Positions 2 through 6,929 of a stretch of DNA of 64,000 nucleotides are shown here, in pieces. Both the position numbers and the translations under genes were made by a program. The notes beneath the pieces were generated by a model. The model did no database searches, had not been told where the DNA came from, and saw nothing but the letters and a program-made list of their open reading frames with translations. The first letter of the stretch is position 1. Each line of letters opens with the position of its first letter. The DNA comes from a virus. The stretch spans positions 1-64,000 of IMG/VR virus record IMGVR_UViG_3300028840_002691. One strand, 5' to 3'.

Positions 2-568
2 GACAAGCGTGGGCAGAGCAGGGCAAAGGCTTTTAGCCAGGGTATGAGACAAACGACGGGATTGATTGCTGATAAAAAGCTGGCAGTGGTATTTGACAAT
101 CAAGTACGAGATGTGGAAAGACTTTCTGGCAAGTCTTATGATTCTCCTGGTGGCTGGGCCATAAAGCACTATGCGTCTGTGAGGATTAAGTTTAGCTATC
201 CGTCTGAGATAAAGACTGATGACAAAAAGAAGGTTATCGGGGTTAAGATCGGTGCCAAGGTCGTTAAGGATAAGATTGATATTCCGCTTAGATCTTGTGT
301 TTTTACCTTGCTGTTTCAGTATGGGGCGGGGGCTGGTATTGATGATTTGCTTGATTGTGCTTCTTGGTTGAAGGGTAATTCTGATATTCTTTCTTCAAAG
401 CAAGGAATCTTTGAGCTTCCTGGACGGAAGGGAGTAAGAGGACTGTCTAATTTTGTTTCTTATGTTGAGAAGCACGATCTTGAGGAGAAGTTGGTTTCAC
501 TTACTAGGAAAGAATGGATACGGCAGAATGTGGATTCAACACAAAGAAAACCAAGAAAGAGAGTTTGA
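2..568 (+). CDS. recA: RecA/UvsX-like recombinase, C-terminal part (5' end outside window)
   Basis: Frame open from nt 2: RAKAFSQGMRQ..VFDNQVRD..SPGGWAIKHYASVRI..KVVKDKI matches RecA ARLMSQALRK..FINQIR..TPGGNALKFYASVRL..KVVKNKV. Confidence 0.9.
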   Translation, partial: DKRGQSRAKAFSQGMRQTTGLIADKKLAVVFDNQVRDVERLSGKSYDSPGGWAIKHYASVRIKFSYPSEIKTDDKKKVIGVKIGAKVVKDKIDIPLRSCVFTLLFQYGAGAGIDDLLDCASWLKGNSDILSSKQGIFELPGRKGVRGLSNFVSYVEKHDLEEKLVSLTRKEWIRQNVDSTQRKPRKRV

Positions 569-640
569 GGTTAGGTGTGGTGAAGTGAGGCAAGGTGAGG
601 TTTGGTGAGGTGAGTTGAGGTTTGGTATGGTAAGGTAAGG
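566..640 (+). repeat. Pentamer array, 15 x (T/C)NNGG, starting at the recA stop codon
   Basis: tgagg ttagg tgtgg tgaag tgagg caagg tgagg tttgg tgagg tgagt tgagg tttgg tatgg taagg taagg. Confidence 0.9.
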
Positions 641-676
641 ATTTCTACTAATGATAAGGATAAGTAAAGAAGGAAT

Positions 677-901
677 ATGAAACAACGCAGAACAGTACAG
701 AAGAACAGAAACTGGACCACGCACAACGAGATCCAGTTCCTGAACGGGCTGGGCACCTTCGGGGTGAAGAGAGCAGTGAGCTACACACCGGAGGAGCGTT
801 ACGAGCTGCAGAGGGCTGCTTACAGAAAGCGTGTGGACTGGGCAGACATAGACCGAGAGAAAGTGTTGAAGCACCTGAGTGAGCTGCTGGGGAGGTGTTG
901 A
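677..901 (+). CDS. Hypothetical phage protein
   Basis: 74-aa ORF with upstream AAGGA, co-oriented with neighbours. Confidence 0.6.
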   Translation: MKQRRTVQKNRNWTTHNEIQFLNGLGTFGVKRAVSYTPEERYELQRAAYRKRVDWADIDREKVLKHLSELLGRC

Positions 902-904
902 AGG

Positions 905-1243
905 ATGGCTATAAAGGTGAGTAGCAGAAAGGGCAAAGCGAGGGTGCTGCAGAACAAAACTCGTGACATGATCTTCAAGGAGTGCCTGAGCCCTATGTGT
1001 GAGGCGGGAGACATACGCTGTGCGCTGATGGGTGAAGTTGGGCCGGATATAGTGATGAGTCCGCTGGCGCAGAAGCATTGGAGGCTTGGAGGAATCGAGT
1101 GCAAGAACCAGGAAAAAATTTCAATTTGGTCAGCACTAAAGCAGGCAGAACAGTACGGCGAGGACAGCCTGCTGGTGTTCAAGAGGAACAGGTCACCTAT
1201 TTATGCTTGCTTGAGGCTTGATGTTTTGCTGAAGCTACTATGA
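905..1243 (+). CDS. Holliday junction resolvase-like PD-(D/E)xK nuclease
   Basis: SSRKGKARVLQ..GPDIV..IECKNQEKISIWSALKQAE..LLVFKRNRS pattern of phage resolvases; next to recA. Confidence 0.8.
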   Translation: MAIKVSSRKGKARVLQNKTRDMIFKECLSPMCEAGDIRCALMGEVGPDIVMSPLAQKHWRLGGIECKNQEKISIWSALKQAEQYGEDSLLVFKRNRSPIYACLRLDVLLKLL

Positions 1244-1320
1244 GGTCTGGTGGGGTCCGGTGTGGTGAGGTTGGGTAAGGCAAGGTCAGGTGAGGCAAGG
1301 TTTGGTAAGGTATGGTAAGG
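1241..1320 (+). repeat. Pentamer array, 16 x (T/C)NNGG, starting at the resolvase stop codon
   Basis: tgagg tctgg tgggg tccgg tgtgg tgagg ttggg taagg caagg tcagg tgagg caagg tttgg taagg tatgg taagg. Confidence 0.9.
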
Positions 1321-1329
1321 AGTAACATC

Positions 1330-1605
1330 ATGAACAAGAACTTCTTTTCAGGCATGAGGGCAGCAGTACTAATAAGCATTGTTCTGTGGCTTGGTATAAT
1401 AGGCTTTGCAAGGATGGTGTTTGGCGCTGAGTCCGCCGACTGTGTGAGGATTCAGATTCATGTCATCAGCGAGGAAGAGCAGTACCAGGACGTGCTGTTC
1501 AAGGTTGGCGACGAGTACATTGACTACAGGGAGCTGAAGGCTAGAGGGCTGGAGGTGCCTGAGCTTTTTTTGACTATTGAGAGTGTGGAGGTGGAAGTGA
1601 AATGA
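1330..1605 (+). CDS. Hypothetical protein with N-terminal membrane/signal segment
   Basis: AAVLISIVLWLGIIGF hydrophobic stretch; AGGAG RBS formed by the end of the pentamer array. Confidence 0.55.
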   Translation: MNKNFFSGMRAAVLISIVLWLGIIGFARMVFGAESADCVRIQIHVISEEEQYQDVLFKVGDEYIDYRELKARGLEVPELFLTIESVEVEVK

Positions 1606-5091: not shown

Positions 5092-5326
5092 TAGTGTTTA
5101 TAAACATTTCAACCTGTGTGTAATGAATCCTTTGGAGGAACAGCTTGTGGGATTGGGCCGTTGTCCTTACTGCCACAAGAAATCATTGTCGGGGGTCTAT
5201 TCTGCTGAGGATAGCTGCGATGTAGCTTCTGTGGTAGTGAAGTTTAAGCAGTGTAAAACTTGTCTAAGAGTTTATGTTTTAGAAGAAGATATTAAGACAA
5301 GTCTTACTGGGACAAGAGAAGAATGA
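5081..5326 (+). CDS. Zinc-ribbon hypothetical protein
   Basis: CPYC..CKTC. Confidence 0.5.
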   Translation: MKTDSVYKHFNLCVMNPLEEQLVGLGRCPYCHKKSLSGVYSAEDSCDVASVVVKFKQCKTCLRVYVLEEDIKTSLTGTREE

Positions 5327-5484
5327 TAATGCCGTGGGGCAAGTTCAAGGGTCGCGACATGGAGCGGGTGCCTTCTGGCTATCTGAAGTGGCTGGCTGAG
5401 AACTGCGAAGACGATACAATAGCCACGGCTGCGGACGAGGAGTTCCGGTGGCGCACAGATTGGGACAAACACTTTTGGGATTGA
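5323..5484 (+). CDS. Small protein with MPWGKFKG motif (DUF3820/ExoX C-terminal-like); absent from ORF track
   Basis: MIMPWGKFKGRDMERVPSGYLKWLAEN translated by hand. Confidence 0.65.
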   Translation: MIMPWGKFKGRDMERVPSGYLKWLAENCEDDTIATAADEEFRWRTDWDKHFWD

Positions 5485-5488
5485 GATA

Positions 5489-5731
5489 ATGATCACAGAG
5501 TTCTGTTACAACTGCCAAAGCTACCAGCCATTCAGGATAAGAAGTGGTTCTGGGTTCAAATCTTATTACTGTGTGACATGTAACACTTTCCTTTACAGCG
5601 AGACTCGCAGTTTGCCCTTCTCCGATGCGTGCCGCTCGGATCAGAATTGCTTTCCTTCCAAGCTCAAGAAACCAAAAAAGGAGCAAAGGTCTGGGCGGTT
5701 ACCGAAGAGAAGGGCAATAAGGAAGATATGA
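5489..5731 (+). CDS. Zinc-ribbon hypothetical protein
   Basis: CYNC..CVTC, basic tail. Confidence 0.5.
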   Translation: MITEFCYNCQSYQPFRIRSGSGFKSYYCVTCNTFLYSETRSLPFSDACRSDQNCFPSKLKKPKKEQRSGRLPKRRAIRKI

Positions 5732-5985
5732 TGAGAAGAAAGGAATACACGCCAAGGCATTTGAGGCCAGTTAAGCCGGAGCCAACCAGAGAACGTATGT
5801 TCGCTATTGGTGAGGAGCATAGACCGCATGAGTTTGGTATGTGGCATGGTCCGAATAGGAAAGAGGAGGAAATGCTTGAGATTGAGGGCAAGTCAAGTAA
5901 ATCCTGCATAATAAGATTCAATGAGGATTATACTGAGGACGTTATTTGGAGATGGCACAGAGACAGATGGATTAGTGTAGAATGA
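5728..5985 (+). CDS. Hypothetical protein
   Basis: ATGA-coupled ORF. Confidence 0.5.
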   Translation: MMRRKEYTPRHLRPVKPEPTRERMFAIGEEHRPHEFGMWHGPNRKEEEMLEIEGKSSKSCIIRFNEDYTEDVIWRWHRDRWISVE

Positions 5986-6251
5986 ACTCCTTACAATTTG
6001 AAATACTGACGGGAATGAAAGCTAGAATTGATGAAGATGGTGTTTGGAGACCAAATGTGTTTTATAGATCAACGAAGGAAGATATATACAGGAATTTTGG
6101 AGAAGCTAAGAGAGTTTATAAGGCTGTGTTTCGGATGTTCATAAGTACTTGGATGATTAGATATTGGCGGGGTGAAGTTGATTACGTACCTTCTAGAGAG
6201 TTGGAAGACTTAGTTTTAGAAGTGAATTTGCCTGGGTATTATTTCGGATGA
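5982..6251 (+). CDS. Hypothetical protein
   Basis: ATGA-coupled on both sides. Confidence 0.5.
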   Translation: MNSLQFEILTGMKARIDEDGVWRPNVFYRSTKEDIYRNFGEAKRVYKAVFRMFISTWMIRYWRGEVDYVPSRELEDLVLEVNLPGYYFG

Positions 6252-6862
6252 ACCTACAACAATACAGAGCAGAACTTGAGGACAGGAAGTCAAGGAGAAA
6301 TCTCCTACAGCAGCAGCTAGAGCAATGCGGTGAGAAGATAGCAGAGAAGCAGGAGTACTTGGAAAACCTGAAGAAGAGCAGGTGGGTTATCAGCGAAGTT
6401 GCTCGTAAGACTCAGGCTCATGTCACACAATACATTGAGAGCTTGGGTACCATGGCCATCAGATCAGTATTCGACAGAGACTTCCGGCTCATAGCTGACT
6501 TTGAGATAAAAAGGAACAAGAGCGAGTGCCGACTGCTGGTGCAGGAGGGCGATCAGGAGCCATTCGTGCCCAAGGAGGAGATGGGCGGCGGGATCATAGA
6601 TGTGCTCAGCTTTGCCTTGCGGGTCATCCTGTGGAGTATGCAGAAGCCCAAGAGCAGGAATGTGCTCATAGTGGATGAGCCGCTGAAGTTCGTGGGCAAG
6701 GGCGAGCTATTGGAGAAAGCTGGGGAGATGGTGAGGAAGATTTCTCACAAGCTGAATTTCCAATTAGTTTTGGTCACACATGCAGATGAATTGTCGGCAA
6801 TAGGTGACCGCAATTGGGAAGTCAAGCACAATGGAGTCTGTTCAGAAGTTACAGAACTTTAA
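6248..6862 (+). CDS. Rad50/SbcC-like ATPase, C-terminal half
   Basis: Coiled coil, signature variant MGGG, Walker B LIVDEP, H-loop LVTH. Confidence 0.9.
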   Translation: MNLQQYRAELEDRKSRRNLLQQQLEQCGEKIAEKQEYLENLKKSRWVISEVARKTQAHVTQYIESLGTMAIRSVFDRDFRLIADFEIKRNKSECRLLVQEGDQEPFVPKEEMGGGIIDVLSFALRVILWSMQKPKSRNVLIVDEPLKFVGKGELLEKAGEMVRKISHKLNFQLVLVTHADELSAIGDRNWEVKHNGVCSEVTEL

Positions 6863-6929
6863 GGTATGGTATGGTGTGGTACGGTCAGGTAAGGTCCGGT
6901 GAGGTATGGTGCGGTGAGGTAAGGTAAGG
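6860..6929 (+). repeat. Pentamer array, 14 x TNNGG, starting at the Rad50-C stop codon
   Basis: taagg tatgg tatgg tgtgg tacgg tcagg taagg tccgg tgagg tatgg tgcgg tgagg taagg taagg. Confidence 0.9.

Follow-up and report, generated by a model that had tools for sequence, protein, structure and literature searches.

A 64,000-nucleotide stretch of phage DNA (positions 1 to 64,000 of the IMG/VR record IMGVR_UViG_3300028840_002691, hereafter the window) contains three arrays of YNNGG pentamers (Y being T or C), designated A1, A2, and A3, which start on the stop codons of genes for a RecA-like recombinase, a PDDEXK endonuclease, and the C-terminal half of Rad50, respectively. We found that every array, when decoded in the manner of the guide RNAs of VIPR systems (vrRNAs), encodes a motif of the gene that it follows. 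The sequence features described below predict that A1–A3 are almost certainly vrRNAs. Because the phage genome contains no vipr gene, while the same search profile detected vipr in control loci, the arrays are what Lopez et al. (bioRxiv 10.64898/2026.10.15.759431) call solo vrRNAs and not a complete VIPR system. They probably aim a Vipr protein supplied in trans at the recombination genes of rival phages.

The arrays are carried by an uncultured phage of the Caudoviricetes, in which genes for TerL and a portal protein are present. Its genome was recovered as a single contig of 105,094 bp, the ends of which share an 18-bp overlap, indicating that it is circular, although its IMG/VR label is linear; the RecA-like open reading frame (ORF) is intact across the contig junction (366 codons). 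An earlier examination of the letters of the window (the sequence-only reading) had described three pentamer arrays that begin at stop codons and finish with TAAGG-A, and pattern scans and the ORF ends confirmed their positions, unit numbers (Table 1), and boundaries. The stop codon lies inside the first unit of every array, the ORFs ending at 568 (TGA), 1243 (TGA), and 6862 (TAA). The 3′ ends of the arrays are also alike, consisting of TAAGG(TAAGG) followed by A, and T-rich sequence directly follows the ends of A1 and A3. Position 1 of the pentamer is a pyrimidine in all 45 units (T in 42 and C in 3), and G stands at position 4, and likewise at position 5, in 44 of the 45. Positions 2 and 3 vary, giving 16 different units among the 45, which agrees with the free variation claimed previously. 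The perfect register and near-invariant GG that had been reported also stood, with the qualification that two units of A1 are degenerate. A relaxed genome-wide scan of both strands, as the sequence-only reading had proposed, detected A1–A3 as the only YNNGG arrays, every one of them on a stop codon, and the longest in-register run in shuffled genomes (n=100) did not exceed 5 units. Comparison of the arrays with Rfam matched no RNA family. A protein-coding reading of the arrays was rejected: every frame is interrupted by stops from the TAAGG and TGAGG units, and recoding of TGA would be of no help because there are TAG codons as well.

VIPR, a CRISPR-like system of phages, was first described in 2026, and the preprints define a vrRNA as a series of 9–16 YNNGG repeats, with GGY conserved and the intervening NN hypervariable (bioRxiv 10.64898/2026.04.26.720920 and 10.64898/2026.04.26.720927). 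Vipr, a Cas7-like RAMP protein of ~20 kDa, assembles into a helical filament in which each YNNGG unit is bound by one protomer (bioRxiv 10.64898/2026.04.26.720927). The vrRNA is decoded by NN pairs that read double-stranded DNA (dsDNA) with one base skipped, usually the codon wobble. In the characterised system, Vipr hides GGY, presents the NN pairs to dsDNA, and silences transcription of the target; type II VIPR, as characterised, acts by silencing and without cutting. In the system of Escherichia phage SUSP1, the use of conserved motifs as targets means that no escape through synonymous change is available. A1–A3 agree with this description in the number of units, in the GGY/NN grammar, and in an NN-skip match with the skip on the wobble position.

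We then surveyed IMG/VR for arrays of the same kind. A pattern scan revealed many variable arrays that follow the same grammar; several were often found on one contig, and TAAGG-TAAGG was a frequent ending. ORFs no more than 3 kb from variable arrays were clustered across 58 fetched IMG/VR loci, and a protein family of ~197 aa was found within 3 kb of variable arrays in 37 of them. A profile of this family (31 members) matched the PDB entry 36pp, 'SUSP1 Vipr protein', with E=6.5e-42, indicating that in uncultured phages, too, YNNGG arrays are tied to genuine Vipr genes. The members of the published Vipr set had been collected by PSI-BLAST from a single seed, which implies that the Vipr family is coherent at the sequence level. 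In the Vipr-linked arrays, TAAGG was enriched at the terminal position (29% versus 9% at inner positions), and the array ends at the loci L041 and L018 were similar to those of A1–A3.

To decode the arrays, each was read as NNx, sites were scored as matched bases, and permutation of the order of the units of the guide served as the null. As an example, the decoded A1 guide reads GAxTAxGTxGAxGAxAAxGAxTTxGAxGAxGAxTTxATxAAxAA. In a family test, homologues of the three upstream genes were aligned, and the best fit of the decoded degenerate peptide was sought along the alignment. The best site of A1 was at residue 331 of the phage's own RecA, within the C-terminal motif with the consensus YxExNxLExEL; that of A2 was at residue 59/60 of the PDDEXK protein, in the catalytic ExK region (ECKNQEKLNI); and that of A3 was at residue 173 of the Rad50 C-half, in the H-loop (IIVTHEPELAE). 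The score was reached by 0/300 permutations in each case, and the best site always lay within the family of the gene upstream. When every guide was tested against every family (3x3), the diagonal won, with scores of 0.34, 0.57, and 0.43 versus 0.23–0.28 off the diagonal. These results indicate that the link between the arrays and recombination genes noted in the sequence-only reading is real and goes deeper than position.

The match extends to the DNA of other phages. The best foreign match of A1 was 26/30, in frame, at the homologous site of the recA gene of L305, compared with a null maximum of 22.1±0.7, and it was 24/26 when the last two TAAGG units were omitted. For A2, the best foreign match was 23/32, in several PDDEXK homologues. 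The best foreign match of A3, 22/28, was at the Rad50 H-loop of the phages L213 and L218, and leaving out the two final TAAGG units gave 21/24. No match to the target was ever seen for the final one or two TAAGG units, which probably serve as a handle and not as part of the guide. As shown in Table 1, the guides A1 and A3 clearly match the phage's own copy less well than the best foreign site; for A2 there is no such clear difference. The own alleles diverge from the family consensus at codons that the guides specify, for example N336H and E341K in recA, KLNI to KISI in the PDDEXK gene, and THEPELAE to THADELSA in rad50. All three target sites are located 56–160 bp upstream of their own array. 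The best match of A2 in the whole genome was the PDDEXK site just upstream of it, in frame and with the skip on the wobble, over ECKNQEK (permutation p=0.0002); apart from this match, no self-target in the genome exceeded the shuffled-guide null. Being of mRNA sense, the guides do not pair with the mRNA and cannot act as antisense RNA, which fits pairing with the template DNA strand.

Table 1. Arrays, recombination-module genes, and own counterparts of the guide targets in the window.
Feature	Position	Strand	Description	Guide match
Array A1	566-640	+	15 YNNGG units, two degenerate (TGAAG, TGAGT); starts on recA-like stop	
Array A2	1241-1320	+	16 perfect YNNGG units; starts on PDDEXK endonuclease stop	
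Array A3	6860-6929	+	14 perfect YNNGG units; starts on Rad50 C-half stop	
Own recA site homologous to A1 target	458-501	+	SYVEKHDLEEKLVSL	19/30
Own PDDEXK site homologous to A2 target	1082-1128	+	RLGGIECKNQEKISIW; catalytic ExK region	22/32
Own H-loop site homologous to A3 target	6764-6804	+	LVLVTHADELSAIG	14/28
RecA-like recombinase, 3′ part	2-568	+	PF00154, E=1e-15; full gene 366 aa, wraps contig ends	
PDDEXK_15 phage endonuclease	905-1243	+	Own Pfam match weak; homologues carry PF24608	
Rad50 N-half	2272-3351	+	Recombination module	
phrog_8905 gene (orf197)	3370-3963	+	E=5e-44; 197 aa, function not known	
Mre11-like phosphoesterase	3960-4865	+	Recombination module	
Split Rad50/SbcC ATPase, C-terminal half	6248-6862	+	TAA stop lies in the first A3 unit	

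A match between a guide and its neighbouring gene is not a general property of Vipr-linked arrays. Among 111 arrays, 5 matched a neighbour at p<=0.05, which is about the level of chance; A2, L082, and L088 were the exceptions. The guide of the Vipr-linked array at L082:5656-5730 matches the gene immediately upstream in frame (22/30, p=0.003), and a recA-adjacent array, L088:1670-1719 / L102:6758-6807, has an in-frame match of 15/20 to its upstream gene (p=0.04). The arrays of L082 and L088/L102 may be further cases of a guide placed beside its target.

The solo status of A1–A3 was assessed with the Vipr profile. A search of all genome ORFs of at least 60 aa gave a best E=0.29, on a spurious repeat ORF, and a six-frame search of the whole genome yielded nothing at E<=10. 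The same profile recovered vipr in the positive controls L018, L102 (three copies), and L117. The phrog_8905 gene, the only ~20-kDa unknown in the recombination module, was considered as a hidden Vipr and rejected, because its family consists of viral hypothetical proteins and none of the nearest matches was a RAMP- or Vipr-like cluster.

Distant relatives of the phage, L018 and L102, keep vipr in the recA–rad50 module. The order in L018 is recA, vrRNA, vipr, vrRNA, rad50N; in L102, vipr and arrays are located in the module, and the TGA stop codon of recA forms the first unit of an array, as in the genome studied here. Dispersed arrays of L041 likewise begin right after stop codons, and they end with TAAGGTAAGGTAAGG plus a T-run. 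The 188-kb phage G002, the record to which L102 belongs, was seen to carry three vipr copies, the third of which (126566-127138) has an in-frame TAA. No array was present at any of 240 loci around homologues of PDDEXK, Rad50-C, or RecA (0/240), indicating that the arrays are an insertion-type polymorphism. Searches for near-identical genomes, by BLAST against phages and by the flank pattern in metagenomes, were empty. The recA genes of L018 and L102 and rad50 of L110 gave no good match to any of the three guides, and none of the top guide matches fell in a Vipr gene.

Taken together, these data point to the following mechanism. The arrays would be transcribed inside the rightward operon and trimmed to about 70–80 nt; co-transcription is suggested because no promoter or terminator was found by the arrays and because the ORF starting at 1330 has the last unit of A2, TAAGG plus AG, as its Shine-Dalgarno sequence. 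The predicted vrRNAs would then be bound by Vipr from a co-infecting phage, a prophage, or the host, since the phage has no vipr gene and the protein must come in trans. Each guide spells codon positions 1 and 2 of a conserved and functionally constrained motif in the version carried by other phages. By analogy with the characterised systems, the guides would direct Vipr to these motifs in the recA, PDDEXK, and rad50 genes of rivals, with no escape through synonymous change, and the less-matching own allele would be kept linked, at most 160 bp from the guide.

Several observations weigh against this mechanism. No donor of Vipr in trans is known, and the only hint of the host, a portal protein with 45% identity in a contig of a metagenome-assembled genome of Pseudomonadota, is too weak for a host assignment. 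The phages with the best matches, L213 and L218, lack vipr as well. A2 matches its best foreign site (23/32) and its own site (22/32) nearly equally, and both values are below the identity of 0.8 used as the cut-off for predicted targets by Lopez et al. (bioRxiv 10.64898/2026.10.15.759431). A perfect natural target was not found by exact pattern for units 2–15 of A2 or units 2–12 of A3 in viral contigs, or for units 1–12 of A1 in metagenome contigs. The lack of a flanking promoter or terminator counts here as well, and no 3′ pseudoknot like that of the SUSP1 tail, nor any hairpin, follows the arrays. Finally, A1 carries two degenerate units.

It is conceivable, albeit with low probability, that each guide and its diverged neighbouring allele form a selfish cassette that acts by RNA-guided 'marker exclusion' or homing. 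The borrowed Vipr, possibly with a nuclease partner, would disable the consensus allele in a co-infecting phage, and a rival rescued by recombination would acquire the guide together with the diverged allele, which would spread the cassette through phage populations. Such co-copying would be expected because the target is only 56–160 bp from the guide. The free-standing homing endonucleases of T4-like phages (Seg and Mob), which are responsible for intronless homing and marker exclusion, are selfish determinants that adjoin the gene attacked in relatives without the determinant. Their own neighbouring allele is resistant through sequence differences, and their presence varies among relatives. 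In the arrangement described here, an RNA guide would give the specificity and the effector would be borrowed. The likeness is an analogy only, and a step of gene conversion would be hypothetical, since type II VIPR as characterised does not cut.

The arrays might otherwise be decoys or sponges that divert the Vipr of a rival or host, in which case the content of the guides would be irrelevant as a weapon. The genome without vipr fits this explanation, and solo vrRNAs that redirect Vipr to decoy sites, as in satellites, are documented (bioRxiv 10.64898/2026.10.15.759431). However, the guides match motifs of the upstream families far better than unit-shuffled guides do, for which a pure sponge would have no need, and we therefore consider this explanation unlikely. 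The presence of vipr in the recA–rad50 module of L018 and L102, together with the absence of vipr and the two degenerate A1 units in the present genome, could also mean that the arrays are decaying, non-functional relics of a VIPR locus left in the module after the loss of vipr. This is rather unlikely, as the register is perfect, GG is retained at each position in 44 of the 45 units, and the guides continue to match conserved motifs significantly; moreover, a single decayed locus would not give three separate sites, each behind its cognate gene.

The partial in-frame self-matches (22/32 and 19/30, at 65–160 bp upstream) raised the question of whether the arrays, with an unrecognised phage protein, tune transcription of their own upstream genes. 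Self-identity was only 0.50–0.69, below the 0.8 cut-off of Lopez et al., the match of A3 to its own gene was 14/28, and no Vipr-like protein was found in the genome, making such self-regulation very improbable. Hardly credible at all is a protein-independent element (a G-quadruplex, a Shine-Dalgarno-like track, a TRAP-type site, or repeats of a diversity-generating retroelement), because, although the GG-N3 spacing could in principle allow two-tetrad quadruplexes and the units TAAGG and TGAGG are similar to parts of a Shine-Dalgarno sequence, the fixed pyrimidine, the co-occurrence with Vipr (37/58 loci), and the codon register of the NN pairs would all be left unexplained.

Three hypotheses of the sequence-only reading fall within this last group. 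Its proposal of an RNA read by a protein in 5-nt steps was right in principle, Vipr being such a protein, whereas the TRAP-like ring that it had in mind found no support: PF02081 (TrpBP) had no match in the genome and was detected in control genomes. The suggested G-quadruplexes were not predicted by ViennaRNA with quadruplex energies, and they too would leave the fixed pyrimidine and the codon register unaccounted for. Diversification by a retroelement was rejected, since no reverse transcriptase was found (PF00078 gave no match in the genome, and control genomes were positive).

Read as solo guides that borrow Vipr, A1–A3 can be compared with the two published types of system. Like the solos of Lopez et al., carried by VIPR-null phages of the SUSP1 family and by F5 satellites, they are YNNGG guides on a mobile element without vipr, are codon-aligned with the skip on the wobble, address catalytic or conserved motifs, and match the element's own sequence less well than that of rivals (here for two of the three guides). 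The solos published there occur as one or two in a vipr–vap1 deletion scar of Enterobacteriaceae phages, and their targets are vipr, other vrRNAs, satellites, and host repeats, whereas here three dispersed guides address the recA, PDDEXK, and rad50 families. Also unlike those solos, the guides lack a pseudoknot tail, and each of them is joined directly to a gene of the targeted family at its stop codon. The type II VIPR of SUSP1 (PDB 36pp; bioRxiv 10.64898/2026.04.26.720920 and 10.64898/2026.04.26.720927) shares the GGY/NN grammar, the 9–16 units, and the NN-skip-one decoding; in contrast, the genome studied here has no vipr, vap, or structured 3′ tail. The SUSP1 guides are located in long intergenic regions beside vipr, whereas those described here lie inside an operon between protein genes.

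The gene names given in the sequence-only reading, recA, resolvase, and Rad50-C, were roughly right: the 'resolvase' is instead a PDDEXK_15 (PF24608) endonuclease, and Rad50-C is the C-terminal half of a split SbcC/Rad50. The two Rad50/SbcC halves are separated by ~2.9 kb that contain mre11 and about seven small ORFs. The phrog_8905 gene, inserted between rad50N and mre11, is visibly AT-richer than its surroundings. A 64-aa homologue of the chlamydial histone H1-like protein Hc1 (1947-2141; PF07432, E=2e-10) is also encoded within the recombination module, and the intergenic region between this gene and rad50N (2137-2248) contains GAGC(G)AGCCA-type words spaced ~36 nt apart, in which a repeat finder detected weak repeats only; no Nop-domain (Tas-like) gene was found in the genome. 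The long ORFs of the genome are overwhelmingly on the + strand, and no tRNA genes were found in the 64-kb window. A different repeat was observed at 39637-39763, where 21 tandem GGTCTN hexamers vary in the last base alone (T, G, or C). It is located between an ORF at 39355-39615 and a 199-aa basic/acidic ORF at 39820-40419, upstream of the terminase region. This repeat is possibly a DNA element, such as a packaging or small-terminase binding site, or it may encode (Ser-[Trp/Gly/Arg])n as part of a 51-aa ORF (39612-39767).

Membership of the vrRNA class and of its solo sub-class places A1–A3 among kinds already known since 2026, but their arrangement is new. Solo guides, documented so far in Enterobacteriaceae phages and their satellites, are hereby extended to an uncultured 105-kb phage. 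The fusion of a guide to the 3′ end of a gene of the family that it targets, and this in core recombination genes, was not found in the available parts of the VIPR preprints. The guides provide concrete, testable guide–target pairs, in which the own allele has diverged at guide-contact codons for two of the three guides. This arrangement suggests how guides and resistant alleles may stay linked, and it bears on the origin and spread of guides and on exclusion between phages.

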